Shown here piece by piece: positions 2,806 through 63,489 of a stretch of DNA of 64,000 bases. The stretch spans positions 1 through 64,000 of the IMG/VR virus record IMGVR_UViG_3300031867_004305, one strand, 5' to 3'. A model generated the notes under the pieces. That model saw only the letters and a program-made list of their open reading frames with translations. It ran no database searches and had not been told where the DNA came from. The number at the start of each line of letters is the position of its first letter. Position 1 is the stretch's first letter. The stretch is from a virus (lineage: Duplodnaviria > Caudoviricetes). The translations under genes were made by a program, and so were the position numbers.

Positions 2806-2877
2806 ATAAATACAGAAAAGGAAAGGAAAGGAAAATAGCCCAGCTTGAAAATATAACAAGAAAAAATTATTTATTAT

Positions 2878-2906
2878 TTGACTTTCATTGAAAATTCTGT
2901 TATAAT
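2878..2906 (+). promoter_or_regulatory. SigA-type promoter (tandem, upstream of the wHTH gene)
   Basis: TTGACT-17 bp-TATAAT with extended -10 TG. Confidence 0.8.
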
Positions 2907-2993
2907 AAGATTGTAAAGAGGAAAAGGAGTAAAATTCCTGCCGCTTACAAAATAAATAAATAAAACATATATAAAAAAGGAGACTGATGTATT

Positions 2994-3353: not shown

Positions 3354-3400
3354 TAGAATAAATGAGGGCGATTCCCTCGTGGAATCGCCTTAGTTTTATC

Positions 3401-3429
3401 TTGACAACATATAAAAATTATGATATAAT
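3401..3429 (+). promoter_or_regulatory. SigA-type promoter for ssb
   Basis: TTGACA-17 bp-TATAAT with TG. Confidence 0.85.
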
Positions 3430-3461: not shown

Positions 3462-4370
3462 ATGAGCAAGGATATTATGACACAAGCAAATAACAAGATT
3501 AATGTTGTTGGCAAGCTACTAGACGCAGTAATTAACGATGGTACTTTAAGTGATGGCCGCAAGTATAAGCGTGCGAATATTACAATTCGCGTAACGCAGA
3601 CTTATGGTGGACGTGAAGAGACTAGTGAAATTCCAGTTAGCATGTTCGCCGCACAGTACACTCAGCAGAATAAGCCAAATCCCGGATATGCTCAGATTGA
3701 AAATCTAGCCGAGATGAAGACTGCCCAGATGGTTGGTATTGATAATGCTGATACAGTTCGTGTTTCTGGTGCGAATCTACGCGAGAATAACTTCGTTTCT
3801 CGTAATAGTGGCCAGCTAATTCATGGTTGGCAGATTAATACTAGTTTTATCAATTCTGGTGCAACTGCTGATGTAGCTTCTTTCATTATTGATATTTATA
3901 TCATGGATATGAAGCCAGAAGTTGATCGTGAAGGCGAAGAGACTGGTAAGCTAATCATCAAGGGTGCGATTGTTCAGTATCAGGGTAAGCTAGATGTAGT
4001 TGAGTTTATCGTTGAAAATCCTGATACTATTGATTACATTGAGCGTAATTGGAATATTGATGACACCGTAGAGGTTCGTGGCCGTATTCGTGTTACCGCA
4101 ATTGAAGATAAGCCAAAGGCTACTGAAAGCTCTTGGGGCGAGGATGTACCCGAGACCACGACTCGCACGGTACGTCAGCTAGTCATTACTAAGGGTAGTG
4201 ATGAGCCTTATGAGGAAGAGTTTGCCTATGATAAGACTGACATCAAGAAGGCTTTCAATGTCCGCAAGGCAATGATTGAACAGCTACAGATTGATGCCAA
4301 GAAGGGTGCCGCTCCAAAGGCTGCCAAGGAACCCACTGCCAAGGGTGAAAAGAAGTGGGATTGGGAATAA
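3462..4370 (+). CDS. Single-stranded DNA-binding protein (tandem OB-fold-like)
   Basis: NKINVVGKL and TVEVRGRI OB-type strands, aromatic/acidic C-terminus (KWDWE), adjacent to a Sak4-like ATPase. Confidence 0.65.
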   Translation: MSKDIMTQANNKINVVGKLLDAVINDGTLSDGRKYKRANITIRVTQTYGGREETSEIPVSMFAAQYTQQNKPNPGYAQIENLAEMKTAQMVGIDNADTVRVSGANLRENNFVSRNSGQLIHGWQINTSFINSGATADVASFIIDIYIMDMKPEVDREGEETGKLIIKGAIVQYQGKLDVVEFIVENPDTIDYIERNWNIDDTVEVRGRIRVTAIEDKPKATESSWGEDVPETTTRTVRQLVITKGSDEPYEEEFAYDKTDIKKAFNVRKAMIEQLQIDAKKGAAPKAAKEPTAKGEKKWDWE

Positions 4371-42100: not shown

Positions 42101-45100
42101 GATGTATCTTGATTTAAAATACCTTCTAAATATTGTCCTACTTCATCAAAATTTAAAAATCCGCCCATAGCATTTCTTAACATGCCATACGCTCGATCTG
42201 CTAGACGTGTACTATTAGCAGTATCATCAAAAGAAAAACTATTATCAGTAATTTCGCCAGAACGATTATTAAGATTTTTAATTTCATTTGCAGTTGTCAA
42301 CATTTTTTGTTGATTTGCTTTTTGTTCACCTACAGCAGCATCATATGTAGCTTGTAGCGTTTTTTGACGTGCAGCCGCTAACATTTCCTCAGCATTTGCA
42401 GTTTCTATAATTATATTACCGCTACTATCAAAACCGCTAATTAATTGGGGAAAAGAATCTGCTAAATCATCAACTGCTTTTTGATATTCTTCAGCTGCTT
42501 CAGCACTTTCATACCTTTTTTCTTTTAATTCATTTACTTTATCTATACCAGTTTGTAAAGTTTTTTCATCTGCTTTAACTTGCTTTGCTGTATTAGAAAG
42601 TTCTTCCGCTTCTTTATTCAAACGCTCTAATTTTTCTTGAGGCGTCTCAATTGCCGTGGCAATTCCATTTATAGCTGTAATAGCTGCCATAGCTACTGTT
42701 ACCCAAGGGAATGGGCCTTTAGTTTCCATAGCTTTCATTACAGAAGATATACCTTTTATAGCTCCGCTTACAAACATTAAAGATCCTGCGAATATTCTAC
42801 TAGAATCTGTAGATTTATCCATAACATTAGCTACAATATTAAGAGCAGAACTAAAATCTAATAAACTATCATAAATCTTTTGGTTTTTAATTTGAGTTAA
42901 AGAACCAGCAAACTCTTTATTTGCTATAGCTAATTCTTTAATTTTTTCTAATGCTTTTTCTGGTCCCTCATTAGCTAATTCTCTTAAAGATTTAGCTTCC
43001 TCATCTGTTATCGCTTTTAAATCTTGTAATCTAGTAATAGCATTTGATATTACTTGAGGATTTATAATTTCACCATTAGAATCTCTCTTAAAAACAATGG
43101 TTTTTGATATATCAGAAAGATCATTTAAACGCTGTTTTGTAACTTCAATTTCTCTATTTATTTCAGAAAAAGAAGAAGAAGTACTTAGACCTTGCCGTAA
43201 TCCTTCATTAAAATCGTTACCAGCTTTTTGCCCTTTTCCTCTTAAATCCAAACTCTCTACATGTCCATCTAAATGACTCTTAAACTGCGTAGCAATAGCA
43301 GATAAACCATTTAATGCTACTGTTTTAATCAAAGAAATAGCATCAGCAATAACAGTCGCAGCACCAATAGGAATCTTTCCAAATAACTTCGGTAAACCAT
43401 TTAATGTATTAATAAAATTAGTAGTACCATCTAAGAGTCCTTTCCATAAATCTTCAGCGCCCAAAGTAGTATAAAACTGCTGATACGCAACTTGTACCTG
43501 ATTCAACTTAGACTCAATAGAATCCAAAGCCTTCAAAGCTTGTAAAGTACCAACATCTTCACTATCATTCGCAACTTCTAGGTTTTCACGCAATAAATCA
43601 CCGTTACTTACCAAAGCTAAGAAACGAGACTGCTGTCTATTACCAGCAAACTGTGTAGCAACATATCTCTGCTGTACTGAACTTAATTGATCCCATACGT
43701 CAGATAATTCAAGAATAACATCAGTAAAGTCTCTAAACTGTCCTTCAGTATCCTTCATAGAAATACCAACAGACTGTAATGCAGAATCTACTTTATTGAA
43801 AGCCATAACCTCGCCTTCAGCATCTACTAAAGTCAGAGGATCTTTGGTTAATTCACCATAACGGCTCGCAATTGACTTCATAGCAGAACCAATATTATTC
43901 GCAGATTCACGAGTAACAGCTACCATAGTAGCGATCATCGCAGAAGTTTCTTCAAATGTAGAACCTACAGATTCCATAGAAGAAGCTGTCCTTGTCATAG
44001 CTTCTGCCAATTCTTGCTGACTTACAGCTGTATTCGCGGCTAAATTAGAATAAACATCTACAACCGTAGAAGCCTCAGACATTTCCATTTTAAAACCACG
44101 AATGGCGGTTGTCATATAGTCAGTAGTTGTAGCATAATCTAATCCAGAAATCTTAGATAACTTTAATGTTTCATTTGTTAAATTTAAAACATCATTAGTT
44201 TCCAAACCTTGCTGATAGTAAATACGAGAAACTTCATAAGCACCTTTAATGGTAACACCATAATTCTGTGCCATAGCACTATAGGCATCTACTTGCTTCC
44301 ATAAATCAGCAGTAGTCATATCAGTAACTATAGCAATACCATTCATTACACTATCAAGTTCTTTGATATGATTCATCGCATCTCGTATAGCGGTTTTAGT
44401 TAAATTTAAAATCTGATTAAATCCCATAAAATTAGTAATAGCCATTTTTATGGAATTAAATGTTTGCTGTTGCTGCTGTAAACGCATAAAAGCAGCACTA
44501 GCTTGATCTAGTTGATTAGCAAATCCTTGTAATTGTCCTTGCATAGCACTTATGCTACCAACAAAAGCACTATTTGCACTTACATTCTGAACTGCTTCTC
44601 CACGTAATATTGCCAATGCTTGTGCAACACGCTCAATTTCTGCGTTATAATCTGACATTCCTTGACTTAAAGGAGTGCCATTAGCTTTCGCAGCATTCAT
44701 TTTATTATATAGATCTTCTACAGCTTTTTGTAAATTTTCATATTCCGCTACTTTTTGTTTAGCACCAGTTAAGTCTGAGCTATTCTTTTTAAAAGATTCA
44801 TCTAAATTTTTAAAAATATCATTAAAATTGCCCTTTTTAAACGCTTCATTAATTTTACCAAAACTTAGTTTTTGTAATGTAGCTATATCAGCATCGCTTA
44901 CTTCAAATTGTTCTTTTAATATTCGTAAAAATTCTTGTTTTCCACCTGACTTAAATCCAGTACCAGCTTTATTAAGCATTTCTCCCCAATCTTGTTGAGT
45001 AATGCCATTACTTAATAAATTTTTAGCTTTTCCAGTTGCTGTAGCTTGCTCAGTAACTGTATTATTTAATTCATCAAATTTAGCTTTAGCGTTTATTAAG

Positions 45101-46579: not shown

Positions 46580-47551
46580 TTAGAGAGAAGAAGTTAGAGA
46601 GCCCTGATCGTCACCAGTAGAAGTAGCATCAGCAGCAGCACCGCCGTAACGGATTAGCTTCATCATTTCCTTCTCGCCGCGCTCGTTGTCAGAACGTAGA
46701 ACGTTTAGGGTCATCTCGAAAGTAGAAGGATCGCCTTCAGCCTCTAGAGTGATAGTAACATCAGATAGTACCTTAGCCTTACCAATTACAAACTGGAAAG
46801 CTTCGTCCTTACCAGTAGCCTGAGAACGCATGAAGGTATCGCCAACTACACGATAAGTGCCTGGGAAAGTATCAGGAGAAATAGTTACTTCAACAGCAGC
46901 GTCGCTGTTAGCAGCGCCAGTAACTTCCTCTTCCCAGAAAATACGAATGTGGTCACCCTGAGCCGGAGCGGTCTCAGTAGCAACGCCCATAGCGTCGTTC
47001 TTGAACTTTAGAACCATATCAGCAGTCATGGTGACAGCCTGACTATTTTCTTCATCATAACTTACCTGAGTACGAACACCAGCTACAGTAGAACCAGTGC
47101 CGCCGCCATAGTTGATAAAGCGGATTGGGTGATTCTTAGTGGCTTTAGGAGTTAGAGTAGAACCAGTAATGTGATCCTTTGGTAGGGGTAGCTTACCATC
47201 AACACCAGCAATAACTTCCTCAGTACGACGTACAATTACAGTTTCAGTAGCAGCTGGCTTATGGATAGCACCGCCTAGCATGAAACGTAGAGACTCAAGA
47301 GAAATTAGAGCGTCTTCTAGAGTTAGGGTAATTTCCTTACCATAGTCCCAAGTGATTAGCTTAGGATTGCCCCAACCACCAGTAGCGTCGGTAGATTCAG
47401 CAGTAGTCTCGATAGTAGAAACCTTTAGGGTATCTAGGAATAGAACGATGTCACCCTTATAAACATTAGACTTAGGGTCATCTTCTAGAGCCTCAAAATA
47501 AACATTGGCAACTTCCTTAATACCATACTTATCAAAAATATTAACAGCCAT
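46580..47551 (-). CDS. Major tail tube protein
   Basis: Position; capsid-like codon bias; FPGTYRVVGDT...LEAEGDPSTFEM tube-like C-terminus. Confidence 0.75.
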   Translation of the reverse strand: MAVNIFDKYGIKEVANVYFEALEDDPKSNVYKGDIVLFLDTLKVSTIETTAESTDATGGWGNPKLITWDYGKEITLTLEDALISLESLRFMLGGAIHKPAATETVIVRRTEEVIAGVDGKLPLPKDHITGSTLTPKATKNHPIRFINYGGGTGSTVAGVRTQVSYDEENSQAVTMTADMVLKFKNDAMGVATETAPAQGDHIRIFWEEEVTGAANSDAAVEVTISPDTFPGTYRVVGDTFMRSQATGKDEAFQFVIGKAKVLSDVTITLEAEGDPSTFEMTLNVLRSDNERGEKEMMKLIRYGGAAADATSTGDDQGSLTSSL

Positions 47552-51364: not shown

Positions 51365-52471
51365 TTAGCCGTTTGGATGTGCGGCAGTATAAGCACTGGC
51401 AATAGCAGAATCTAGATTATCATTATAATCCTTCCAACCATCGGCCTCAATACCAGCATTGTAATAGATGCCCCAATAATTAGGAGTACCAATCATGCCA
51501 ATACCAACCTTTAGATAGCCTTGTAGAACGATAGAATTATCGCCCTCATGGTCATCCCACTCACGGAAATAAGGAGAGCCCTCAAAGCCTAGCTTGATTA
51601 GCTTTTCCTTGCCAGCAGGAATTACATAAGCGAAAGAAGGATTCATAACTAACTTCTCATTCTTCTCATCAGTATAAGACTGTGGCATTACAACAACTGG
51701 GAAGCCACGGAAACGGCCAATATAGCCACGCTCGCGCACTTCAATCATATCCTGATCAGAAATCTTGGTAGTATTGTTATAAACAATAGCATTTACCATT
51801 TCAGCTGCAAACTCAGGAGTGCAGTAGATTACTGGAGAACCATAAGCAGCAACAACGTTGCAAAGCTTTACCATAGCGGCTGGATCAAAACTAGAAGCAA
51901 TGACCTTATTCTTGGCTGGACGACCAGCTAGATTCCAAGAACTTAGTAGGGTCTCCTGAACCATTTCAAAGATGCGGTCAACAATACCTTGCTGAATAAT
52001 ATCATAAATATCAGTCATGTTCTCAACGCCATCAAGATAACGCTCGAAATCAACATAACCGGCTCCGCCAATAGCCTGTGGATATACGTCAAAACGATCA
52101 CGGTCTAGACGGAAGGTCTCATAGTTACCAGACTCGGTGGCACGAGTAACAAACTGACGACCACGCTGCTTGCCACGAGTTACACGGAACTCTAGGCGAG
52201 AACCCTGTGGTACACGAATAACTTCGCAGAACATATCTAGTGCGTTCTGGATATTCTGTGGTAGAACCTCTTCTAGGTTCTGCTCTAATAGCTCAAATAG
52301 CTCAATCTTATTGCGACGATACTTGGCACGACTAAAACGACCCTTGTCATCGCATAGTAACTTGACTAGCTCATCATGTAGAGCAGCCTCATAGTCATAA
52401 TTCTCGGCAGCGAACTCGGCTGGAACCTTGCGGCCGAAAACACCATTCATTAGAATCTGTAGATTATTCAT
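51365..52471 (-). CDS. Major capsid protein
   Basis: About 368 aa, AGGAGG RBS, strong codon bias, GYIGRFRGFPVVVMP P-domain-like segment, followed by a terminator. Confidence 0.8.
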   Translation of the reverse strand: MNNLQILMNGVFGRKVPAEFAAENYDYEAALHDELVKLLCDDKGRFSRAKYRRNKIELFELLEQNLEEVLPQNIQNALDMFCEVIRVPQGSRLEFRVTRGKQRGRQFVTRATESGNYETFRLDRDRFDVYPQAIGGAGYVDFERYLDGVENMTDIYDIIQQGIVDRIFEMVQETLLSSWNLAGRPAKNKVIASSFDPAAMVKLCNVVAAYGSPVIYCTPEFAAEMVNAIVYNNTTKISDQDMIEVRERGYIGRFRGFPVVVMPQSYTDEKNEKLVMNPSFAYVIPAGKEKLIKLGFEGSPYFREWDDHEGDNSIVLQGYLKVGIGMIGTPNYWGIYYNAGIEADGWKDYNDNLDSAIASAYTAAHPNG

Positions 52472-52486
52472 AGTTCGCACCTCCTA

Positions 52487-53116
52487 TTATAGACTAATAA
52501 TCTGATACTTAACGCCGGGCTCGCCGTTAGGTACAGTATAGAACTTAACAACCTTAGCATAAATGCCAGAATTTGGCTTGGTAGCAGTAATCTTAGGAAC
52601 AGCAGAACCAGCAACGGGAACTACATATAGAGGAGTAGTGTCGATAGCTTTTAGAGCATCAAATAGAACTTCTTCAGAAGTCTTTTCACTACCAGTAGTA
52701 GTTACAGCTTTGAATTCGCTATCATCGTACTGTAAACAGTTTGTAGTTACAGTATCACCAATACCAAATAAACCAACACGAGGATAGTCGCCAGCAATCT
52801 TGCGACCAAAGGTCTGTAGACCATAATGGAAAATATCATATTCCTTTTCAGTAGTATAAACAATACCAATAGGCTTATCAGTAGCAGCAGCTGGAGAAGC
52901 AATAACGCCCGCGGCCTTATCTGCAACAACCCACATACCATTCTCACAAGGAGCGTTTAGAGTGAATTCTGCACCTAGTGGGGTCTGTGAAACTACCATA
53001 CCAGTCTTTGGGAAAGCTACCTGGTTTAGCTCTAGAGTAGCATATAGCTTCTCGCCTGGGCGATACTTGCTAGAATAGCTATTGGCACTTGTTAGTGGAA
53101 ATCTCTTCATAGCCAT
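52487..53116 (-). CDS. Abundant head protein (decoration-like)
   Basis: LELNQV...CENGM...PRVG...GDTVTTN; between scaffold and capsid; same codon bias as the capsid. Confidence 0.6.
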   Translation of the reverse strand: MAMKRFPLTSANSYSSKYRPGEKLYATLELNQVAFPKTGMVVSQTPLGAEFTLNAPCENGMWVVADKAAGVIASPAAATDKPIGIVYTTEKEYDIFHYGLQTFGRKIAGDYPRVGLFGIGDTVTTNCLQYDDSEFKAVTTTGSEKTSEEVLFDALKAIDTTPLYVVPVAGSAVPKITATKPNSGIYAKVVKFYTVPNGEPGVKYQIISL

Positions 53117-53130
53117 AATTGTTTCCCTCC

Positions 53131-54420
53131 TTAGTTTTTACGATACTTTTTCATAAATTGAGCGAATTGATCTTCTTCAGGATCTGGTAGTGGCACTTTC
53201 ATTTCTTTTTCTTCACTGCCAGCGATCTTTGAATTAGCAAAAGTGATTGCTAATTTAGATTCCAATTCATCATAAGAAAAGTCATTAGCCGCTTCTTTAA
53301 TTGGACTAATTTCTTCTTCACTCATTATTTTTTCATATTTTTCTACCAAATCATTCTTACGAGCATTTTCAGCTTCTACTGCTTGATTCTCATAAGTCTG
53401 TAGAGTAGTTTGTAATTGTTCGTTTTGCGCGCGTAAAGTTTCAAGTTCAGTATTTGCGCTGGTTTGGAACGCTTCAAGTTCGTTGATACGAGTTTGGGCG
53501 TTCTCATAGTTTGATTGTAATTCGTTGTAGGAGTTTTGTAAGTCGTTGAATTGCTGTTGGAGAGCTTCAAATTCAGAAGGTTCTTCATTTTCGGGTTCTT
53601 CAACAACTTCTTCCTCATTTTCAGTAGATTCTGTTGTTTCCTCAGTTGTAACTTCTGTTTCAACAACTTCCTCAGCCTGAAATGAATCAGGAGTTTCTTC
53701 TACTTGAGGATTTTCAACCTGATCTACAACTTCTTGATTTTCAAACTCATTCATTGGTTGTTCTCCTCCTTCATTATTTTTTTCTGCCTCTTCAACTTGT
53801 GTTTTGAGGTCAAACAGAAGTGAAGAGAACTTCTCATATTGAGAATTATAAGTATCATCATTCTTTGAGAAGAATGAGGACACGGAAAAACAAGGTTCAT
53901 GTTCGCCAATAATACAAAAACCTAACATACTAGCTTTAGTATAAACAAAGTATTCAATTCCGTCAATACGGGTCCAAGCCCCATCAATTGAATTAGGATC
54001 TAATTCCATACTTTGATTTTGCCCAAAAACTTTATTAGCTTCTTCAAAATAATTGGTGAATAAAATAATTGAAAATACAGCGTAGTCTCGAATAACACCA
54101 TCTGTGTCTTCAAAAGGTTCCCATCCTAAAAAACTTTCTACATAACCATAGGCATTTGCCAAAGTTGGGCCACTATGAGAAGCCCAACTTTGTGTTTCCG
54201 GGTCAAAAAAACCAACTACTGGTGTAGTTCCTTGTGTAGCAGAATTGATAAGTTGTTCCGCTACTTTTTCAGTAATGTAAGAGCCATTGCGGTTTCCATA
54301 CTTAGTAAAAACACGCACTTTGAGGCGGCCCAAGTTAGGATTTGACTCCGAAATTCTTTCGATGGGAGAAGAGACTACAACACTATCAAAATAAATAGGT
54401 ATTTGTCTATCCATAGTCAT
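53131..54420 (-). CDS. Prohead protease/scaffold protein
   Basis: GNRNGSYI, QSMEL, GFCIIG..EPCF N-domain plus acidic coiled-coil C-terminus. Confidence 0.7.
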   Translation of the reverse strand: MTMDRQIPIYFDSVVVSSPIERISESNPNLGRLKVRVFTKYGNRNGSYITEKVAEQLINSATQGTTPVVGFFDPETQSWASHSGPTLANAYGYVESFLGWEPFEDTDGVIRDYAVFSIILFTNYFEEANKVFGQNQSMELDPNSIDGAWTRIDGIEYFVYTKASMLGFCIIGEHEPCFSVSSFFSKNDDTYNSQYEKFSSLLFDLKTQVEEAEKNNEGGEQPMNEFENQEVVDQVENPQVEETPDSFQAEEVVETEVTTEETTESTENEEEVVEEPENEEPSEFEALQQQFNDLQNSYNELQSNYENAQTRINELEAFQTSANTELETLRAQNEQLQTTLQTYENQAVEAENARKNDLVEKYEKIMSEEEISPIKEAANDFSYDELESKLAITFANSKIAGSEEKEMKVPLPDPEEDQFAQFMKKYRKN

Positions 54421-54426
54421 TCTCCT

Positions 54427-55998
54427 TTATCCCGCGGCCGCAATATTGGCCTGAGTTTTCTCGGACTTTTCTTCATCGGGGAGTTCTGGACGACCTCCCT
54501 TATTATTTATGTCTTTGTTCTGCTGAGAACTTGTAGTATTTTGTGACGAATTTGTATTTTTTCCTTCATTAGCTACTGCCGTGCCAGAAGTAGTATAAGA
54601 GGACTGTAATGGAATCATTTTACTAGACATATCTAAGAATTCATTTTCAAAATTCATTAAAGATAATTGATCCATTTGTTTAATTCCCATTGCTACTCCC
54701 GCAAACATTTTAGAGTAACCATATTGAGCACCACTGAAATAAGCACCTTGTAGGTCTTTACGATTAAATACCGTAGTGGGAAGAATCTCAAAATCAAAAG
54801 TTAATCCAGTGCGAGAAAATTGGTCATTCAAATGAAATTTTATCCAAGTTTCATATACATTTAAGAAACCCTGCATAAGTGCTTCATCTTTTTTTATGGC
54901 ATACGCTAATGTAGAGCTACCATCCGCATTAAAAATTATAGAACTACGGCCTAATGCGTCATAAGCGTTTTTCTTATATTTTTCAATACGGTCAGCAGAT
55001 TGAGTCGCGGCGGAAGATTCTTGTAAACTTTCTAAATCTGTTTCACCAAATGTAGTAAGTACATCAACAGTGTCAATATCACCAAGCATATCCGCAACAG
55101 AAGAATGAATATCCGCTACTTCATCAAGCTGAAAAACTAGTTCGCCGTCAGAAGTAATAGGCATCCTTTCAATAAGTAATTTATACAATTCGTTTTCATC
55201 ACGTTTTTCTTCTCGTTTTACAGCATCTTTTAATTGTTTTAAATCAGGAATACTAGAAATTAAAAGAGGCGTTTGATCTCCAGAAAAACAAAAACATACC
55301 CCGCCCGCGGCAGCAGGTATTTCTACCCACGAGTCAAGCATACGGCGGCTACCTTCCCACGCATACCAAGCTTCTTGGACTTCTTCAGGAAAAGTAGAAA
55401 GCATTTCTAATTTTAATTCTCGTGTTTGAAATTTATCAAAATAAATTAAGTTAAATTCTAGAATATTAAGATTATTCATATCCTTAAAACGGGTACGACA
55501 ATACTCTAAAGGTAATTCATGAATTACTGCTTTATTACCATCTTTTCTTAAAATACCATTATATACCCCTGTTTTTAACCATTCAGTAGTAATTCGCATT
55601 AAAGTATTAGGTAAATCAAGTGCGTCAACAAAGTGACAAGCATTATAAAATGCTTTTAAAATTTGTGCCTTGGATCCCTTACCTTCTTCAAACACAGGAA
55701 TAACCATAGTATCATATAAAAATAAATGTGCTAAAAAGTCTATATTATTTCTATATTCGCCATTAGTACGATAATAATAACGAGATAATTCCCTTAAATC
55801 TTGTAGGTCTCCTTCACAAATAATTCGTTCTATTTGTTCTAAAGTGAAATCTTGATAACTAACTGGATCACTTCTGCGATATCCCCAACGAGAATATGCA
55901 CGATCTCCAATTGGTAAACGTGGACTACGATTTTTTATTGCAACTTTAAAATTAGTAAAATCATATTTTTCTCTATTATTGATGTTCACTTTATTCAC
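54427..55998 (-). CDS. Portal protein
   Basis: 523 aa directly after TerL; PLQSSYT...GGRP C-terminus typical of this portal type. Confidence 0.75.
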   Translation of the reverse strand: MNKVNINNREKYDFTNFKVAIKNRSPRLPIGDRAYSRWGYRRSDPVSYQDFTLEQIERIICEGDLQDLRELSRYYYRTNGEYRNNIDFLAHLFLYDTMVIPVFEEGKGSKAQILKAFYNACHFVDALDLPNTLMRITTEWLKTGVYNGILRKDGNKAVIHELPLEYCRTRFKDMNNLNILEFNLIYFDKFQTRELKLEMLSTFPEEVQEAWYAWEGSRRMLDSWVEIPAAAGGVCFCFSGDQTPLLISSIPDLKQLKDAVKREEKRDENELYKLLIERMPITSDGELVFQLDEVADIHSSVADMLGDIDTVDVLTTFGETDLESLQESSAATQSADRIEKYKKNAYDALGRSSIIFNADGSSTLAYAIKKDEALMQGFLNVYETWIKFHLNDQFSRTGLTFDFEILPTTVFNRKDLQGAYFSGAQYGYSKMFAGVAMGIKQMDQLSLMNFENEFLDMSSKMIPLQSSYTTSGTAVANEGKNTNSSQNTTSSQQNKDINNKGGRPELPDEEKSEKTQANIAAAG

Positions 55999-57773
55999 CC
56001 CCTTTTTCTAGGACTGAAAAAGGCATATTGCCCAAAGTTCTTTTTCTTTGCTTTTCGCGCAGCTTTATCTTCATAATACTTTACTCTATAAAGACAGTAT
56101 TCAAGTGCAGAAAAGCGGTCTTTAGGGGTAGAAGCTGAAATACGCTCTACTTTAAATTGATTTTGAACACCAGTAGGCTTCAGCTTTAAATTATTTAATT
56201 CATCCATAAGACGAGAAGTCATTTCATAAGGAAGTAAATAAACTCTGCGATCATATAATGACATTTTTTTGCCACGAATTGTTTTTAATAATTTATCTTT
56301 TACTATTCTTTCGCTTGCAAGAAAAGATACGGAACCATTATTTATTTGTGAGAAAAAATTAGAATGAATTAAATCATCATTAGAAGAGCCAGCTTTAATA
56401 TCATATATAATAGCATTAAGCTCCGGTAAAGGTTCATCCATTTCTTTCTTTTTATCAGGCGGTAAATGATTTTCGTCATTAAAAGTAAAATAAGCAGGAA
56501 ATTTTTCTCCTGTATCTTTATTAAAAGAAGGAAGTACCATCGCATCTAGCAAGCCAATACCTGGGCCATTACCGTCAATAACTATTTCGCGTGGATTATA
56601 TAATTGTATAAGTTTTTTAAGACGCGGTGCTTGCTCTGTAATATAATTCGCGCCATGAATAACTTCTGTATAAACGATATTCTTTTTAAAACCATTCGCA
56701 TTCGGCATAACTTTAGCTACCATAATTGCAGTATTAGCAGAATATCTGGCTACGTCTACCCCAATCATATAAAATGTATTTGGATTTGTAGGATTTTCTT
56801 GTGCTTTACGCTCACATTTTAATAAAGTTCTACGTTTGCTTAGACGTTTAGAATCAAGCCATGCTTCTTTACTATTTCCAGTCCAAATAGACAATGACTC
56901 ACGAGCGAATGAATCTTCATTCATCGTATTGGAATAACGTTGATCCATTAACGTAGCTTTATCAATTAAGCCATAACGTAAAGGAACTTCATATGAAAGA
57001 CCCCAAACAAAATATTCTTGCGGCCGCAAAACAGCATTTACAGCACACTCAATAAGTTTGCTATACATAAATACAGTTTTTTCGCGCGCAGTAGTAATGA
57101 AGATTTGGGCAGCTGTAGGTTCTTCTGGATTAAGAGATCCATCTACTTCACGGCGTGCTACGTTCATTTGAGGAAGTAATACTTCATTATAATCTTCTTC
57201 CTCAATTGTCGCACATTCCTCCAATATACCGGCGGTAGCGCGCAGACCACGGCTTGTATCCTTTGAGACAACAGTAATCATACTACCGTTGCGGAAACGA
57301 AGCTCATAGTAGTTACCACTCTTTTTCTCACCTTGCTGTCCGCCGCTTTCACGTGTCTGTAATTCTTTTTGTAGCATAGGCCAATGGCGCCAAATTTCAT
57401 TGAATTTGGCCTCAGCGATTTTTATTACTGTACCCTTTACATCAGAAGAAATGAAAATGTTGGAACCAGGTAGAAGGACCGCACGCACAACAGAACTTAA
57501 ATAAGCTGTGAAAGATTTAGAAGTAGCACGAGTAGCAGTCCAATAGTGATAACGGTATCGCATTGAAGCACGAAGTGCAATACGCTGATAGAAGAATAAA
57601 TGAAAATGTTTTTTATCATTTTCTGGTTGTATTGCGTCCAAAAATAAATCCGGATACAACAACCAATAATTTAAATAAGAAGTAAAAAGAGATTGATTAT
57701 CATCAAGAAATTGTTTAGTAAGTATTACACCTTTTTCTAGCGCAATACCATCACGAATAAATGTTTCCGCCAT
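55995..57773 (-). CDS. terL: Terminase large subunit
   Basis: FFYQRI, Walker A-like ATRATSKS, RGLRA, Walker B GILEE, ITTA; nuclease IGVDVAR, VIDGNG, KDRFSA. Confidence 0.88.
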   Translation of the reverse strand: MAETFIRDGIALEKGVILTKQFLDDNQSLFTSYLNYWLLYPDLFLDAIQPENDKKHFHLFFYQRIALRASMRYRYHYWTATRATSKSFTAYLSSVVRAVLLPGSNIFISSDVKGTVIKIAEAKFNEIWRHWPMLQKELQTRESGGQQGEKKSGNYYELRFRNGSMITVVSKDTSRGLRATAGILEECATIEEEDYNEVLLPQMNVARREVDGSLNPEEPTAAQIFITTAREKTVFMYSKLIECAVNAVLRPQEYFVWGLSYEVPLRYGLIDKATLMDQRYSNTMNEDSFARESLSIWTGNSKEAWLDSKRLSKRRTLLKCERKAQENPTNPNTFYMIGVDVARYSANTAIMVAKVMPNANGFKKNIVYTEVIHGANYITEQAPRLKKLIQLYNPREIVIDGNGPGIGLLDAMVLPSFNKDTGEKFPAYFTFNDENHLPPDKKKEMDEPLPELNAIIYDIKAGSSNDDLIHSNFFSQINNGSVSFLASERIVKDKLLKTIRGKKMSLYDRRVYLLPYEMTSRLMDELNNLKLKPTGVQNQFKVERISASTPKDRFSALEYCLYRVKYYEDKAARKAKKKNFGQYAFFSPRKRG

Positions 57774-58698
57774 TTAAATCACCAAGAAGAGCATCTTCAT
57801 CTTCATAAGCGATGTTTGCTGTTTCATCAAATTCTACTTCTTCATTTTCAATATTCTCTAGTCGTTCTGTGAGATTGAAACGTTCACGCTTGTCTTCTAC
57901 TTGTTCTGCGAAATTGCCTTCATTTACTACTAGGCGACGCAAGTAATTTTGAATGTTTTGCATACAGAAATCAACATCATCTTTTGGTTCTGTATGCCAT
58001 TTGGGATGCCAACCTTTTTTGCCGTAGTATACCATAAGTTCACCTACCGATTCGAAGTCTGCGGCATTTTTGGCATTAGAAGCTTCAAATTTGGCTATTT
58101 TAATTATGTTGTCGCGGGCGTCCATATCCTTTTTAATATCTAGGCCTTCGCGCAAACCTTTTTTAATGCGTAATTCAATTTCGCAGAGGTCGCGGGCGTA
58201 GTGCTCTAAGATAGGAGTGGAAACGTTTTGCGTAGCGATTATTTGGTTGTAGTATTCTTCAAGAAAGAGTAATTCATCTGGCGTGTAAGCGGGAGACCAA
58301 GTTTTTTTAAGTTTGCGCATTTTGGCTTCGCTTAATTCCTTGATTTCATCATCTATTGTTTGTTCTTCGCGCGCAATGCGCCATCTTTCATTTTCGTCAG
58401 ACCAAGATACGGAATTATATCTTTCATCTAAAAGTGTGTTAAAGTAAGCCGAAAGCGTGCGGTCGCCATGTATTTTATAAAGCGATGTCCATTTGTCCAT
58501 ATCAAAAGGCAAATCCAAGTATTGACAAAGTTTGTCAACTTCTTGGAAGTTGTCTTGACGCACCATTTTTTCAAGGCAAGAAGTACAAATAAGAGAGAGG
58601 TGACCCGGGAAGAATGGTGATTCAGTATGAGCAAAATCATATGATGGTTTTTCTTGTTTACATTTTAGGCAGCGTCGAGTCTTTATTGCGTCTGTCAT
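57751..58698 (-). CDS. Zn-finger protein upstream of TerL (candidate terminase small subunit)
   Basis: CLKC...CTSC; function inferred from position. Confidence 0.5.
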   Translation of the reverse strand: MTDAIKTRRCLKCKQEKPSYDFAHTESPFFPGHLSLICTSCLEKMVRQDNFQEVDKLCQYLDLPFDMDKWTSLYKIHGDRTLSAYFNTLLDERYNSVSWSDENERWRIAREEQTIDDEIKELSEAKMRKLKKTWSPAYTPDELLFLEEYYNQIIATQNVSTPILEHYARDLCEIELRIKKGLREGLDIKKDMDARDNIIKIAKFEASNAKNAADFESVGELMVYYGKKGWHPKWHTEPKDDVDFCMQNIQNYLRRLVVNEGNFAEQVEDKRERFNLTERLENIENEEVEFDETANIAYEDEDALLGDLNGGNIYS

Positions 58699-59968
58699 GT
58701 TCAGATTGACCTCCTTTTGCTATGCGTTTTTTGCGCTCACATTCTTTACAGTTGGAGGCGTATTTATCCTTGCGGCTGTTATTAGTAGCGAAAAAATAGT
58801 TGTTGCGTGGTAGCCATTGTTTACAGGTGAAGCATTGTTTTCGCTCCGATTGTGGAGTGGTTAAAAGCATACGATGCTTTGTGGCGGCTGCCGCGATTTT
58901 TTCTGGGATTTCTTTGGAGAGAATAGTACAGAGATGATTTTCGTTGTATTTTAATCCAAATTTTTCTTGTAGTTCAGCTACAATGACTGGATAAGGTGCT
59001 TTATCTATTTTTCGCGTAAGAATATATTCGCGCACAGGAGAAAATCCTACCATATCAAAATAGCGGTCAAAATCATACAGTAAGGTGCGGCCCCAACTGT
59101 CGAGTTTTTCGCCCAATTCCATATAGATGGCGCTATAGTGGTTAATGAGGGCTTTGATGTGTGCGGGATTCTCCCAATCAAATGAGTGTCGGCGCACAAC
59201 CCATTTTACTTCTTCTTCTCCTGTATCGGGATTTATTCTTGTTTCGTAGTCCGCGATGTTGCGGGAGATGGTATGGAGAAGAGCGTTGTCTACGCGCGTT
59301 TGCCATTGGTCGAGGGGCATCCAGTAACAAGCATCGGAGTCCCAATTGTAAGTTTGCGATTTTGGTGGAGTGACAGCAAGAAAGTGGAGAGTGGGTTTGT
59401 AGCTGTCTTTAAGGTAGTATTGGTGGCGCTTTATATCTATGAGGGCATGTTTGAATTGATAGAAGCGATAGGAGTCGGTGAATAGTTGGGTGTCTTCGTC
59501 GGGCGGGACTGTGCCTTCGTTTACTGCCTTGATGTGGTCTAGGCGGTCGATAGTTTCCCAGAGTTGGGTCATTCCGGGGACATCGCTATCGCCGGGGTCG
59601 ATGAGGTTGCCTTCTTTATCGTATTTGGGGCGGCGTATGGTAGGTTTTTTCTTTGTATAGATGTAGCGTGTTTCGAGTGTTTGGAGATTTTGTTGGTCGC
59701 TTAAGGGATTGTCGAGAATTTCGTCTAGTGAATGAACTTTGTCCGCGGCACGCTGAAATGATTTGTAGCGTTTGTCGGAATCGGTTGTTTCGCCTCGTTG
59801 GACGGAATTTTTACCTGTTTCATCTTTGCCATAAAGGATGTAAGAGGCCATTTGTTCTAATTCAGAGTTGGTAGGGTTGGTTTCGAGCGTGTCAAGAATG
59901 TCTTCTACTGCGCGAAGACGGTCTGTGTCGCGTTCGATGGAATAGTCGAGTGAGTACTTTTTTTTCAT
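58658..59968 (-). CDS. Hypothetical protein with HTH-like region and C-terminal CxxC...CxxC
   Basis: GGAG RBS before MKKKYS; CFTC...CKEC; first gene of the morphogenesis arm. Confidence 0.7.
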   Translation of the reverse strand: MKKKYSLDYSIERDTDRLRAVEDILDTLETNPTNSELEQMASYILYGKDETGKNSVQRGETTDSDKRYKSFQRAADKVHSLDEILDNPLSDQQNLQTLETRYIYTKKKPTIRRPKYDKEGNLIDPGDSDVPGMTQLWETIDRLDHIKAVNEGTVPPDEDTQLFTDSYRFYQFKHALIDIKRHQYYLKDSYKPTLHFLAVTPPKSQTYNWDSDACYWMPLDQWQTRVDNALLHTISRNIADYETRINPDTGEEEVKWVVRRHSFDWENPAHIKALINHYSAIYMELGEKLDSWGRTLLYDFDRYFDMVGFSPVREYILTRKIDKAPYPVIVAELQEKFGLKYNENHLCTILSKEIPEKIAAAATKHRMLLTTPQSERKQCFTCKQWLPRNNYFFATNNSRKDKYASNCKECERKKRIAKGGQSEHDRRNKDSTLPKM

Positions 59969-60012
59969 TTGCTTACATCTCCGTTTGGGAGATACAACTT
60001 CCTTCATTTTAC

Positions 60013-60041
60013 AGTTTAGCATATTTTGAGGATTTTGTCAA
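60013..60041 (-). promoter_or_regulatory. SigA-type promoter at the head of the morphogenesis arm
   Basis: TTGACA-17 bp-TAAACT with TG. Confidence 0.7.
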
Positions 60042-60104
60042 GTGTTTGGGTTTTAAAATTGGGCGGGATGGAATTTCAGGCCGGGTGTGGAATTTGGGCA
60101 GCCC

Positions 60105-60132
60105 TTAACATAAACTTAACATAAACTTAACA
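60105..60132 (+). repeat. Triple TTAACA direct repeat with 11-bp period
   Basis: TTAACA-TAAAC-TTAACA-TAAAC-TTAACA; another pair at 60228-60244. Confidence 0.9.
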
Positions 60133-60170
60133 TTTTCCTTAAATATAGCCCCGGGGTCGGCCGGGCGAGT

Positions 60171-60517
60171 CACTTTAGTCTGCTAAAGTGGTGTCGTGGC
60201 ATCACTTTACTATAGTAAAGTGACAATTTAACATAAATTTAACATTTTAATATCACACTTTAGCATATTAAAGCATGAAATTCTACCGCAGGGGTAGGAT
60301 TATTTCATATTCAAAAAACCCAGTAGTATGGTGGTATTTTATTTTATCAACGGCACACACGATAACCACCTGGCCCATCGTTTTAGTAGGAAAAGATGGT
60401 AGGGGCCCACTTTAGCATACTAAAGTGCTAAAGTGCTAAATCCTACTGTTTGGCAAGACTTTCATATAGTAAAGTGCTAAATCCTACCGTGAGAATACAC
60501 TTTCATATACTAAAGCG
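60171..60517. repeat. Cluster of six CACTTTA-N6-TAAAGTG palindromes (motif A)
   Basis: Copies at 60171, 60203, 60256, 60408, 60457 and 60498, each with 0-2 mismatches. Confidence 0.9.
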
Positions 60518-60523
60518 AGGGCT

Positions 60524-60964
60524 TTACGCCCTCGCCATCGCTTTTGCTATTGTGGTTTCATTCGCAAGACTTGCGGATTCAAATTTGATTTGGTATTTTG
60601 TACCGTTGATGGTGATATCGCCGTCGATGTAGTAGGGGATGGAATCTTTGTGCCACTCTTGCCCGGCGTTTTCGGTGATCCACTGTTCGAACGCTTCGCC
60701 TTTATTCTTCCGGCTTGCGAGGACTTCCGAGGCGGTACCGATGTAGGCGGCACCCATGTTAATCAGGCGGTGGCGGGCGATGGTGTTCATCCGAATGCGA
60801 AGCTTGCGAGCACCACCGTGGGAAGTGCTTTCCCTGTCCATGCCAACCAGCCACTCAGGCAGGTCGTTCAGGTAGATGGTGTAAACCTTGTCATTCATCA
60901 GGAAGCCGATGATGTAGGCCATCGCGGCGGTAGTGGCTTTGTAGGCGTTCAGCAGGTTCATCAT
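60524..60964 (-). CDS. Cassette protein, 146 aa, with a PD-(D/E)XK-like C-terminal motif
   Basis: GAGAGG RBS; NKGEAFE...DGD......YQIK; own promoter at 60999-61027. Confidence 0.75.
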   Translation of the reverse strand: MMNLLNAYKATTAAMAYIIGFLMNDKVYTIYLNDLPEWLVGMDRESTSHGGARKLRIRMNTIARHRLINMGAAYIGTASEVLASRKNKGEAFEQWITENAGQEWHKDSIPYYIDGDITINGTKYQIKFESASLANETTIAKAMARA

Positions 60965-61063
60965 GGTGGTTACCTCTCTTTCGTTGCTTTCTAGGTATAT
61001 TATACACCTTGACCGGGCAGATGTCAATAAGGTTTATGTTAACTGTGTGTTAAAGGTTGAGGC

Positions 61064-61231
61064 TTACGCCTCAACCTTCCAGTCGTGGCGGATGCGCTCC
61101 AGCGGCCACCCATCACGGTCGATGGTGTGCTCCCACACGTTGCCATTCTCATCAAGGTAGGCGATGTGCGTCAGGGTGATCGGCCAACCGTCGCGGTCGA
61201 TGGTGTGCTCGTAGGCGGTGATCTTCTTCAT
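61064..61231 (-). CDS. Cassette protein, 55 aa, with duplicated EHTIDRDGWP
   Basis: GAGAGG RBS, own promoter, hairpin overlapping the stop. Confidence 0.8.
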   Translation of the reverse strand: MKKITAYEHTIDRDGWPITLTHIAYLDENGNVWEHTIDRDGWPLERIRHDWKVEA

Positions 61232-61462
61232 TTTGTAGCACCTCTCTCTCATTTCTTGACTATATTATAGCACACTGGAATAGCAATGTCAATAGGTTTT
61301 TTGCGAATTAACAGACGCTTAACAATCGACGTCCGCAGGTCCAGGTCTTGGTTAGTCATACCTAACTCGTGCCTTCACTCCTCCCTGTCCTTCCTTTCCG
61401 GTGCAACTATATTATAGCAAAAAAGAAGGCTTTTGTCAAGCCCTCTTTGTGTTAAGTTGATA

Positions 61463-61627
61463 TTAAAGAATACCAGTTATTTTTGCCACCAGCGGAGACA
61501 AGATCAGCATTAACAGACCAGCGATCATGCCCCAATTTACCAACCAATGAGGATCATCAGCATGGGCGATGCCCACAAAGCAAGCAACTACAGCAATTAT
61601 CACATACACAGGAAGAATCCACATCAT
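61463..61627 (-). CDS. Cassette protein, 54 aa, two predicted TM helices (absent from the ORF track)
   Basis: MMWILPVYVIIAVVACFVGIAHADDPHWLVNWGMIAGLLMLILSPLVAKITGIL; AAGGAG RBS and own promoter. Confidence 0.8.
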   Translation of the reverse strand: MMWILPVYVIIAVVACFVGIAHADDPHWLVNWGMIAGLLMLILSPLVAKITGIL

Positions 61628-61833
61628 TGTTTTTCTCTCCTTTTTTTTCTCTCTTTCGTTGACACTATTATAGCATATAGCCGGGCGTTTGTCAATACTT
61701 TTTTATGTAAAGTATGTGTAAACTTCTCCGCCGGTCAAATATGATTAGTTAGTGAAAACTAACTCCACTGGCCGAGTTAGTTCAGACTAACTAACTCTCT
61801 AATATAAAAAATAAAGGGTTTGCACCCTTTATT

Positions 61834-62124
61834 TTAGAAATTGAAATTATCAATTGTACCACAATAGCGACAGGAAACAATCACATCGTCGTAAATAATT
61901 TCCGTGTTATTATCATCCATCAGACAAGCACACAAGTCATTAACATTCCAGTCCTCACAGCCGTAAAACTGCCAAATGTTCCCGTTCGCGTCAACCACGT
62001 CCACCAAATCAGTAGAATAGTCAACATTGACAACCTTAGTAACCATTGCGTAATCCTCAGCGAGAGCATTAACACCAACCACCATCAGCACGACCACCAT
62101 CAGCATCATAATCGTGTTCTTCAT
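61834..62124 (-). CDS. Cassette protein, 96 aa, with Sec signal peptide and acidic Cys-containing mature part
   Basis: MKN-hydrophobic-ALA|ED; AAGGAG RBS; terminator at about 61805-61833. Confidence 0.85.
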   Translation of the reverse strand: MKNTIMMLMVVVLMVVGVNALAEDYAMVTKVVNVDYSTDLVDVVDANGNIWQFYGCEDWNVNDLCACLMDDNNTEIIYDDVIVSCRYCGTIDNFNF

Positions 62125-62285
62125 TGTTGTTTATCTCCTTTGCTTTTGTTGTATATAGTATAACACACATCTATTCACTTGTCAATACCTTTTTGTGTTT
62201 TCTTTTGTAAAATCTATATTAAGCGTCTGGCCGGCCAGAAAGTTAGTTTAGACTAACTAACTGATCCAATAAAAAAAGATGGGGA

Positions 62286-62444
62286 TTATTCATCCCCATC
62301 AATCCAGCCCATCGCAAACTCATAGGCGATCTCAATGATCGTGTAATCGTTCGCGCGCTCGCACTCATTGAAGAAGTAGATCGTGGCAGGGTGTTCGAAA
62401 CCGAAAGCGCGAATCACGTTGTTTTTCATCTCATTGATCTTCAT
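62286..62444 (-). CDS. Cassette protein, 52 aa (absent from the ORF track)
   Basis: MKINEMKNNVIRAFGFEHPATIYFFNECERANDYTIIEIAYEFAMGWIDGDE; AAGGAGG RBS, promoter and terminator. Confidence 0.85.
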   Translation of the reverse strand: MKINEMKNNVIRAFGFEHPATIYFFNECERANDYTIIEIAYEFAMGWIDGDE

Positions 62445-62539
62445 TATGGGTTCCTCCTTGCTTTTGATGTAATTATTTTACCACACGCCAAGACCTTTGT
62501 CAAGAGGTTTTGAAAAAATTTTTTTGTTAAGATTCGGGA

Positions 62540-62710
62540 CTACTCGATGTAGTCCCGAACCTCGTCGTTCGTCAGGTCCAGTTCCTCAGCGATGACTTCC
62601 ACCGCCTCATCGATCCAGAACAACTGTTCCTCAGCGGTCAGGTCCTCCCACGCGCCCATCAGATTCTCGTTGATGTAGGCATCCATCATGGTATTGATCT
62701 TGTTAGTCAT
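62540..62710 (-). CDS. Cassette protein, 56 aa, highly acidic (absent from the ORF track)
   Basis: MTNKINTMMDAYINENLMGAWEDLTAEEQLFWIDEAVEVIAEELDLTNDEVRDYIE; AAGGAGG RBS, promoter and hairpin. Confidence 0.85.
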   Translation of the reverse strand: MTNKINTMMDAYINENLMGAWEDLTAEEQLFWIDEAVEVIAEELDLTNDEVRDYIE

Positions 62711-62884
62711 TGTGGTGTCCTCCTTGCTTTTGTTGTATTCATTATAACACCTATCCGGCTATTTGTCAATACCTTTTTTGTATTTTTCTTTGTAAAGTTT
62801 GTGTTAAGCCTCCGGCCGGCCCGCGCGAGTTAGTTTATGCTAACTAACTATTATATTAATAAAAAAAGAGGGCTTAAACCCTCT

Positions 62885-63031
62885 TTATGCTACATACCCT
62901 TCGATCATTGCGGCTACTTCATGTGCCCACATATAATCATTGTATGCGCCATAGAACCATTTTTCTCCATCAACAACACGGTAAACGATAAAGCGATAAT
63001 TGGTAGCGTAGGCAGGCATGTTGTTAATCAT
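62885..63031 (-). CDS. Cassette protein, 48 aa, paralog of 63202-63318 (absent from the ORF track)
   Basis: MINNMPAYATNYRFIVYRVVDGEKWFYGAYNDYMWAHEVAAMIEGYVA; GAGAGG RBS, promoter and terminator. Confidence 0.85.
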   Translation of the reverse strand: MINNMPAYATNYRFIVYRVVDGEKWFYGAYNDYMWAHEVAAMIEGYVA

Positions 63032-63201
63032 TTTGATTACCTCTCTCATTTGATGTATATATTATAGCATAAAGTATCGAGAATGTCAATACCCTTTTAA
63101 AAAATTTCTTTGTAAAATCTAAGTTAATGATCTGGCCGGCCAGAAAGTTAGTTATAACTAACTAACTATTAAAATATATAAAAAAGAAGGCTTTTCAGCC
63201 T

Positions 63202-63318
63202 TCAAGCAACTTTTCCGCCCACCATAGCAGCATATTCTTTAGCCCACTGCAGATCATCAAAAGCACCGTAAAAATACTTGATGCCCTTTTCCTCAACGTA
63301 TACGATGAACTTCTTCAT
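63202..63318 (-). CDS. Cassette protein, 38 aa, paralog of 62885-63031 (absent from the ORF track)
   Basis: MKKFIVYVEEKGIKYFYGAFDDLQWAKEYAAMVGGKVA; AAGGAGG RBS, promoter and terminator. Confidence 0.85.
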   Translation of the reverse strand: MKKFIVYVEEKGIKYFYGAFDDLQWAKEYAAMVGGKVA

Positions 63319-63489
63319 TGTTGTTTCCTCCTTGCTTTTGATGTATTTATTATAACATGCCTTTGTTATTTTGTCAATACCTTTTTGTGTTAATTGTGTA
63401 TTAACTTATTTATTTCCAGGATCGTGATTAGTTTAATTAAACTAACCGCTTTTCTGGCCTGCATAATGGGCCAGAACTTATTGATTCAT

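Follow-up and report, generated by a model that had tools for sequence, protein, structure and literature searches.

Three synonymous-codon classes tied to expression class in a large uncultured tailed phage

Leucine codons in the virion genes and the early array

The uncultured phage record IMGVR_UViG_3300031867_004305 (Caudoviricetes) is 181,042 bp long with a GC content of 36.6%. Its first 64 kb (64,000 nucleotides [nt]), here called the window, holds a virion module and the start of an array of short early genes; coordinates are those of the record, of which the window forms positions 1 to 64,000. We found that the genes of this phage fall into three synonymous-codon classes tied to expression class: early genes favor the leucine codon CTG, ordinary genes favor TTA, and the most abundant proteins use almost only CTA. 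The major capsid gene (51365 to 52480, minus strand; phrog_4088) encodes 20 of its 25 leucines with CTA, three with TTA, two with CTT, and none with CTG, and it encodes all 17 of its lysines with AAG. Four further genes share the CTA preference, namely, a virion structural protein gene (46580 to 47551, minus strand; phrog_2729; CTA 20/22), a 209-amino-acid (aa) head-module gene that immediately precedes the capsid gene (52487 to 53116, minus strand; CTA 11/13), a gene for a MarR-type winged-helix protein (2994 to 3353, plus strand; CTA 8/8), and a gene for a 302-aa protein (3462 to 4370, plus strand; phrog_2367; CTA 9/10, AAG 25/25). These five genes had been named in a first-pass annotation of the DNA, and all of its hand counts were reproduced. 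It had called the phrog_2729 product a tail tube and the 302-aa protein a single-stranded DNA-binding protein (SSB); the latter label was not confirmed by the phrog_2367 assignment or by a PDB sequence search, which came back empty. The 209-aa product, a scaffold or decoration protein by its position, had no family match and an empty PDB sequence search, and the capsids of relatives carry the Pfam YonB family. Together, the five genes use CTA for 68 of 78 leucines (87%) and CTG for 0 of 78, compared with CTA at 576 of 3690 in the remaining genes outside the array (Fisher p = 7.5e-43).

The early class was defined by promoter and Shine-Dalgarno site, ignoring composition to avoid circularity. 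When no more than one mismatch was allowed, a scan for TTGACA-17-TATAAT returned 82 sites, about 40 of which are packed into 60 to 82 kb and are mostly perfect with an extended −10. Taking the first open reading frame (ORF) with a Shine-Dalgarno site behind each promoter gave about 30 mini-genes, and the 27 that start before 79 kb were tested. In the part of the array inside the window (60999 to 63377, minus strand), nine sigma-A promoters lie close to the consensus and have an extended −10 (TGnTATAAT); the array continues to about 81 kb. The phage early promoters appear to be copies of strong host promoters. In each unit, a promoter, a Shine-Dalgarno site, and a mini-gene are followed by a AGTTAGTT..AACTAACT hairpin that has GGCCGGCC as its core; the architecture of the array is integron-like and repeat-bounded. 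The cassette gene at 60524 to 60964 (146 aa) lies behind a perfect TTGACA-17-TATAAT at 60999 to 61027, uses CTG for 7 of 10 leucines, and has a GC content at third codon positions (GC3) of 0.70. It is followed by genes of 55 aa (61064 to 61231; GC3 0.87; promoter at 61264 to 61292), 54 aa (61463 to 61627; hydrophobic; CTG 3/8; promoter at 61667 to 61695), 96 aa (61834 to 62124; CTG 3/6; promoter at 62157 to 62185), 52 aa (62286 to 62444; no leucine; GC3 0.69; promoter at 62475 to 62503), and 56 aa (62540 to 62710; CTG 4/5; GC3 0.80; promoter at 62741 to 62769) and by two paralogous mini-genes (62885 to 63031 and 63202 to 63318; promoters at 63061 and 63349), all on the minus strand.

The first-pass annotation had described the genes at 60524 to 60964 and 62540 to 62710 as CTG-rich cassettes that lack CTA and are GC-richer, and both descriptions hold against a bulk GC3 of about 0.23; judging from the host-type sigma-A promoters in front of them, such cassettes are probably immediate-early genes. 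Across the 27 promoter-defined early genes, CTG accounts for 65 of 147 leucines (44%) and CTA for 3 of 147, at a GC3 of 0.60, compared with CTG at 118 of 3690 elsewhere (Fisher p = 1.6e-50). The CTG-using region covers 20 kb, from about 60 to 81 kb, and GC3 is heterogeneous among its cassettes (0.24 to 0.87).

When recomputed genome-wide, the codon contrast still holds. Bulk genes use TTA for 44% of leucines, CTA for 15%, and CTG for 3% (GC3, 0.23), and the small abundant set, which also includes some genes of the tRNA cluster, uses CTA for 66% of leucines overall (GC3, 0.36). Among 108 genes, CTA use rises with AAG, CGT/CGC, and GGT/GGC (Spearman rho, 0.28 to 0.40) and falls with ATA (rho, −0.30), and the five top CTA genes are near-absolute on this axis too. 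Thus, CTA belongs to one axis of coherent bias and is not a leucine oddity, and this multi-amino-acid bias grows with expected protein abundance. The shift that separates early genes from the others also spans all amino acids (GC3 of 0.60 versus 0.23 to 0.36) and not leucine alone, with CTG chosen over CTC, GGC over GGG, CGC over CGG, and ACC over ACG among the G/C-ending codons. A sigma-factor-like gene that separates the virion module from the early array (58658 to 60022, minus strand; phrog_5767) is intermediate and unlike all three main classes, with CTC at 15 of 37 leucines and a GC3 of 0.46.

Conservation of the classes among relatives

Early genes equal bulk genes in GC content at first and second codon positions (GC1 and GC2) and in amino-acid make-up, and intergenic GC inside the array (0.35) is the same as in intergenic DNA elsewhere; A at four-fold sites, however, is 0.09 in early genes versus 0.32 in bulk genes. 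Since only third positions differ, the early-gene composition does not stem from a mutation bias of the region, from GC-biased conversion, or from capture of genes of a GC-rich genome.

The phage belongs to a large and diverse family, as judged by capsid relatives in IMG/VR. About 80 of these are 68 to 100% identical to the capsid protein here, and the CTA bias is kept in the 80 relatives with CTG near zero; judging from their sample numbers, they may come from rumen metagenome series. Remoter capsid relatives (25 to 40% identity) include the gut phage phAss-1 (37%) and large Enterococcus and Clostridioides phages. We assembled four whole relatives (G011, G009, G015, and G004) with capsids 73 to 76% identical to the one here. 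Capsid CTA counts in G009, G011, and G015 are 16/22, 17/24, and 18/30, and in each of the four relatives the homologs of the abundant genes are CTA-enriched (0.28 to 0.55, versus 0.11 to 0.18 in bulk genes). All four also have a promoter-dense array with a GC3 of 0.44 to 0.56, and in three of them CTG makes up 0.36 to 0.46 of the leucine codons in the array. Early-gene orthologs in these relatives are only 30 to 57% identical and still have a GC3 of 0.5 to 0.8 with CTG exceeding CTA; the G011 ortholog of 60524 to 60964, for example, has 31% identity, a GC3 of 0.77, and 12 CTG codons. A bias that is confined to synonymous positions and kept in orthologs this diverged is therefore selected and does not reflect recent gene capture. 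By this comparison, the three-dialect structure appears to be an old, maintained trait of the family.

The first-pass annotation had named recent acquisition of the cassettes as its alternative. In such a reading, they would be horizontally acquired, foreign DNA from a GC-richer source that has not yet ameliorated. The spread of GC3 among cassettes and the integron-like, repeat-bounded layout of the array would suit such an origin, but the normal amino acids, GC1, GC2, and flanking intergenic GC, the bias shared by the arrays of all four relatives, and the strongly diverged yet GC3-rich orthologs largely refute it, and we regard it as very improbable. A DNA search of 401 Oscillospirales genomes gave promoter look-alikes only.

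Phage tRNAs and a second promoter type

Nineteen standard tRNA genes and two interrupted ones all lie at 134 to 157 kb, outside the window. Nearly all of these tRNAs have a wobble U and match the A-ending codons of bulk genes. The first-pass annotation had predicted a phage tRNA-Leu(UAG), and a 78-nt tRNA with anticodon UAG, which matches CTA, is indeed present beyond the window at 151229 to 151306. Bacterial tRNA-Leu normally has a long variable arm, which is missing from this tRNA; its D-arm and anticodon arm resemble those of Oscillospirales tRNA-Leu(UAG), and it is likely charged with leucine. The short form is common in sampled relatives (loci L087 to L102), where all UAG and CAG tRNAs and most AAG or CAA ones are 75 to 79 nt without a long arm and the UAA tRNAs, except one in G005, are long-armed. 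The interrupted tRNAs, detected by ARAGORN with introns allowed, lie at 138513 to 138661 and 149587 to 149721 and have anticodon-loop inserts of 74 nt and 47 nt, respectively; the second is a long-arm tRNA-Leu, and relatives also have similar interrupted tRNAs. Within the tRNA cluster are genes for an RNA ligase (PF09414; 145440 to 146090) and a protein with a PAPS-reductase-type domain (147549 to 148493), both of which could act in tRNA repair, splicing, or modification.

A second promoter type, TTGACTTTT..AAAAWT..TGnTATAAT, occurs in 16 copies (window positions 2777 to 3429 and genome positions 83431 to 155028). One copy, at 151095, lies upstream of the tRNA(UAG) gene, and some of the rest stand before other tRNAs. 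Four CTA-rich genes also have this promoter type in front of them; they start at 2994 (two copies, at 2777 and 2878), 3462 (one copy, at 3401), 134036, and 142265. Because this promoter type is shared, tRNA(UAG) and part of the CTA class are probably co-regulated, and its conserved spacer suggests that a putative phage regulator binds there. The CTA-rich genes include virion genes without perfect sigma-A promoters and these four genes behind the second, sigma-A-type promoter. The first-pass annotation had presented the CTA class as later genes, which does not hold for the several members that sit behind sigma-A-type promoters and are not late. The gene at 142265 to 143800 encodes a Ro/TROVE-like protein (DUF2828 plus DUF7788) and belongs to the CTA/AAG-rich class (CTA 19, AAG 29/3).

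The same annotation had tied the CTA bias to a tRNA-Leu(UAG) that is perhaps phage-encoded. Whole-record scans of G009, G011, and G015 (complete or near-complete records) and of G004 and G002 found no tRNA(UAG), and their capsid CTA fractions are 0.73, 0.71, 0.60, 0.24, and 0.35, respectively, compared with 0.43 to 0.80 in nine genomes that have the tRNA; across these 14 genomes there is no clear link between tRNA(UAG) presence and capsid CTA fraction. Thus, G009, G011, and G015 keep CTA-rich capsids without the tRNA, and G011, which has three tRNAs in all and no leucine tRNA, keeps all three codon classes. The phage tRNA(UAG) is not required for the CTA bias and is not its cause; it would reinforce the CTA choice instead. 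In addition, the abundant class avoids most codons read by the phage tRNAs (AAA, AGA, GGA, ACA, GCA, and GAA).

Host evidence, comparable phages, and explanations of the partition

The host is probably a member of the Oscillospirales. A capsid search of 185,579 species genomes gave a sole match, a 47-kb contig binned in an Acutalibacteraceae metagenome-assembled genome (MAG), although binning is weak host evidence. In the EF-Tu gene of this AT-rich MAG, CTT encodes 22 of 29 leucines and CTA 0 of 29, compared with CTA at 13 of 24 in the capsid of the binned phage. Among 87 distinct EF-Tu genes of Acutalibacteraceae and Oscillospirales, about 35 are CTG-dominant, many are CTT-dominant, and CTA is prominent in only four (G149, 19/29; G041, 13/30; G383, 7/26; G056, 6/29). 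The G149 gene uses CTA 19 times, CTT 9 times, and CTG never (AAG 16/1, CGT 19/4), and the 28 tRNA matches of that genome include no tRNA-Leu(CAG); the G041 genome has two tRNA-Leu(UAG) genes. CTA as the leading EF-Tu leucine codon, as in G149 (L226/L251) and G041 (L122/L160), is unusual for bacteria, and sampled relatives do otherwise. The first-pass annotation had held that a CTA preference in highly expressed host genes would speak against its proposal; genes of this kind do exist in the candidate order, but they are rare singletons (about 4 of 87) that form no clade.

By codon usage, the abundant class correlates with EF-Tu of low- and mid-GC Oscillospirales (r = 0.7 to 0.8) and the early class with EF-Tu of GC-rich Oscillospirales (r up to 0.83), and correlation against the 87 EF-Tu genes discriminated no single host. 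The 28 spacers of the clustered regularly interspaced short palindromic repeats (CRISPR) of G041 gave only chance matches of 13 to 19 nt to five whole phage genomes and 80 loci, and Cas1 had no match in G149, G056, or G016. An exact-protein look-up of the capsid of one relative (L075) returned metagenome contigs only. The search of the 401 Oscillospirales genomes with 20 kb of phage DNA found no spacers, only promoter look-alikes of 29 to 77 nt (UP element, −35, and extended −10). In these Oscillospirales chromosomes (loci L263 to L268), the promoters are 78 to 97% identical over 29 to 77 nt to phage promoters at window positions 62455 to 63420, and the likeness covers the A/T-rich upstream element, CTCTTGACA, and the extended −10. 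For uncultured phages, the early-gene dialect may be a new host clue.

Expression-class codon usage in tRNA-bearing phages has long been known, and this phage is an unusually sharp and well-conserved case. In T4, codon-usage classes were reportedly tied to expression time, and found to be complemented by T4 tRNAs, by Cowe and Sharp in 1991 and Kunisawa in 1992. The likeness to T4 is that expression classes within one phage differ in synonymous codons and that the phage carries tRNAs; here the classes differ at p ~1e-43 and 1e-50, the tRNAs match bulk A-ending codons, and tRNA(UAG) matches CTA. In the classic T4 case, the host is AT-poorer than the phage. Unlike T4, however, this phage has three classes instead of two, a sharper contrast (GC3 of 0.23, 0.36, and 0.60; CTA at 87% in one class and CTG at 44% in another), and an abundant class that mostly avoids the codons of the phage tRNAs. 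Streptomyces bldA, in which the rare regulatory codon TTA is gated by a dedicated tRNA, is similar in that one leucine codon and a dedicated tRNA mark a gene class, but here CTA is dominant in the proteins of highest abundance, and relatives do without the tRNA gene. Early-versus-late codon bias has also been described across 14 phages (PMC5683454).

Two phages bear on how far CTA follows the host. Sharanji (OR545507, Asteriusvirus) is a jumbo phage of Escherichia coli, whose optimal leucine codon is CTG and whose rarest is CTA. Like the phage here, it has CTA-rich head proteins in an AT-rich genome, with a bias that tracks protein abundance (capsid, CTA 24/30 and CTG 0; two neighboring head genes, 21/37 and 14/18). 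It differs in being an unrelated phage of a Gram-negative, CTG-preferring host and in using AAA instead of AAG; both AAA and CGT, which Sharanji also uses, are E. coli preferred codons. Sharanji has seven tRNAs, none of them for leucine (PMC11895373). Since it uses CTA against a CTG-preferring host and without a leucine tRNA, CTA need not copy the host optimum. Enterococcus phage EF1 is a cultured distant relative whose host is AT-rich. Its genome is AT-rich throughout, without a GC-rich array of early genes, and its capsid gene uses the codons that Enterococcus prefers, TTA and AAA.

We favor, tentatively and at somewhat less than an even chance, a timed codon partition in which early genes are adapted to the naive tRNA pool of the host, whereas the bulk proteins made later depend on tRNA-Leu(UAG), with the phage copy as reinforcement. 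The roughly 30 immediate-early mini-genes, which have their own host-type sigma-A promoters, prefer G/C-ending codons (GC3 of about 0.6, CTG), and avoid A-ending ones, would be translated by the naive host pool before phage tRNAs exist. Ordinary genes would drift to A/T-ending codons such as TTA, to be read by the 19 to 21 phage tRNAs, nearly all with a wobble U. The few proteins made in bulk (capsid, head, tail, winged-helix, and 302-aa proteins and some products of the tRNA cluster) keep almost entirely to CTA, AAG, CGT/CGC, and GGT/GGC without ATA; CTA pairs perfectly with tRNA-Leu(UAG), which would be drawn from the host supply and from a phage copy made by the promoter type that drives several CTA-rich genes. 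Selection would hold each of the three regimes. Decoding would in this way differ between early and later genes: CUG would be read well at first, and CUA would be the favored codon afterward. Two highly expressed classes with opposite leucine codons, even in a phage without a leucine tRNA, imply either that decoding differs over time or that a factor besides decoding has shaped one of the two. We favor the timed partition because it explains both classes at once, because the early codon choices resemble the real codon usage of GC-richer Oscillospirales, because CTG-optimal candidate hosts are common and CTA-optimal ones rare, because EF1 on an AT-rich host shows no early array, and because Sharanji shows a CTA rule that is independent of the host optimum.

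Several points weigh against this partition. The fit of early genes to the host tRNA pool is an inference; the only bacterial bin with a family member is AT-rich and has an EF-Tu gene that prefers CTT and lacks CTA. Some Oscillospirales EF-Tu genes, those of G149 and G041, are CTA-rich, and CTA could therefore simply be the host optimum. The four CTA-rich genes behind sigma-A-type promoters may be translated alongside the CTG genes. G011 keeps its classes without a leucine tRNA, so any change of the decoding pool there does not come from phage tRNA genes, and phage GC usually tracks host GC at a few percent below it. The cause of the CTG/TTA/CTA partition is only partly explained.

Among the rival explanations, one would have the abundant phage genes simply copy an Oscillospirales host in which CTA (with CTT) is optimal and CUG is poorly read, which then needs a separate, non-decoding cause for the GC3-rich early genes. 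The CTA-rich EF-Tu genes of G149, with no CTG and no tRNA-Leu(CAG) among its matches, and of G041, with its two tRNA-Leu(UAG) genes, speak for it, as do the CTA bias of relatives without the phage tRNA, the TTA and AAA of the EF1 capsid, and a phage GC that, if lying the usual few percent below that of the host, fits a host GC of 39 to 45%. We nevertheless consider it rather unlikely: CTA-rich EF-Tu genes are scattered singletons set against a large, diverse phage family, strongly promoted early genes would be using the worst leucine codon of the host, Sharanji has the same bias on a CTG-preferring host, and in the MAG that holds a family member, the EF-Tu gene has no CTA although the phage capsid is rich in it. 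The strong form proposed by the first-pass annotation is that infection destroys or sidelines host tRNA-Leu(CAG), which would turn off CUG-rich host translation while CTA and the phage tRNA-Leu(UAG) provide an escape. T-even phages cleave tRNA-Leu1, and the fall of CTG from 44% in immediate-early genes to none in the five named genes, the presence of tRNA(UAG), and the Sharanji parallel in E. coli all agree with such a loss; an RNA ligase in the tRNA cluster together with interrupted tRNAs makes tRNA cutting and joining plausible. No nuclease candidate was found, however, G009, G011, and G015 do without the phage tRNA, the early/late shift hits all amino acids, and bulk genes, too, contain little CTG, a scarcity that AT mutational bias could produce by itself, so that this form seems to us distinctly unlikely.

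Selection outside decoding would have GC-rich third positions protect the first transcripts or the first-entering DNA from A/U-specific RNases, toxin endoribonucleases, spurious promoters and terminators, or AT-targeting silencers, and would make CTA a separate, general property of large AT-rich phages. The shift in early genes is global, as the depletion of A at four-fold sites illustrates, and is present in G011, which is almost without tRNAs; CTA recurs in the unrelated Sharanji-E. coli pair, and CTA-rich and CTG-rich genes both lie behind sigma-A-type promoters. Against this stand the preference for CTG over CTC in genes that choose GGC over GGG, CGC over CGG, and ACC over ACG, as in real bacterial usage, and the correlation with EF-Tu of GC-rich Oscillospirales, which favor decoding over plain base composition; we judge such protection rather improbable. 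A broader proposal, which is speculative and also unlikely in our view, is that in AT-rich large phages of very different hosts, such as this probable rumen family and Sharanji on E. coli, infection alters leucine decoding. The host CUG reader would become unavailable or undesirable, CUA, read by tRNA-Leu(UAG), would serve proteins made in bulk as a "private" codon, immediate-early genes would keep to the host dialect, and the tRNA(UAG) genes of this family, with their truncated variable arms, would be dedicated suppliers.

Phage codon classes are usually weak statistical trends and CTA is normally a poor codon, but here the classes are near switch-like, are maintained in a large uncultured family, and have links with two promoter types and with phage tRNA genes. 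The three-class pattern is a sequence-only predictor of expression class and protein abundance, and its interesting part is why CTA recurs. If leucine decoding really changes during infection, phage tRNA arsenals would be timing and host-takeover devices, and the change would also explain why unrelated jumbo phages share CTA in their most abundant proteins.

Some gut phages like phAss-1 recode TAG to glutamine and carry suppressor tRNAs (PMC10607447). They belong to the same broad family as the phage here, have many tRNAs and predicted Clostridia hosts, and likewise depend on phage tRNAs for part of the translation of the genome; the partition here, however, is by synonymous codons and not by a reassigned stop. 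Within the family, G002, G014, and G015 have tRNAs with anticodon CUA (amber suppressor; labeled "Pyl" by ARAGORN; loci L084 and L101 to L103), code 11 yields many more short ORFs in G009 and G015, and TAG is probably read as an amino acid in part of the family, as in phAss-1, but not in this genome. A TAG-recoded, phAss-like code was rejected for this genome, in which ORFs are intact in standard code 11 and scans for standard and interrupted tRNAs found none with anticodon CUA. Known RNA families were absent from 57 to 64 kb. Among the intact ORFs is one of 5158 aa (30133 to 45609, minus strand), an exceptionally long tail gene with a phage minor-tail domain of the tape-measure type and a Pretoxin-HINT domain at about residue 2200 of its C-terminal 3288.

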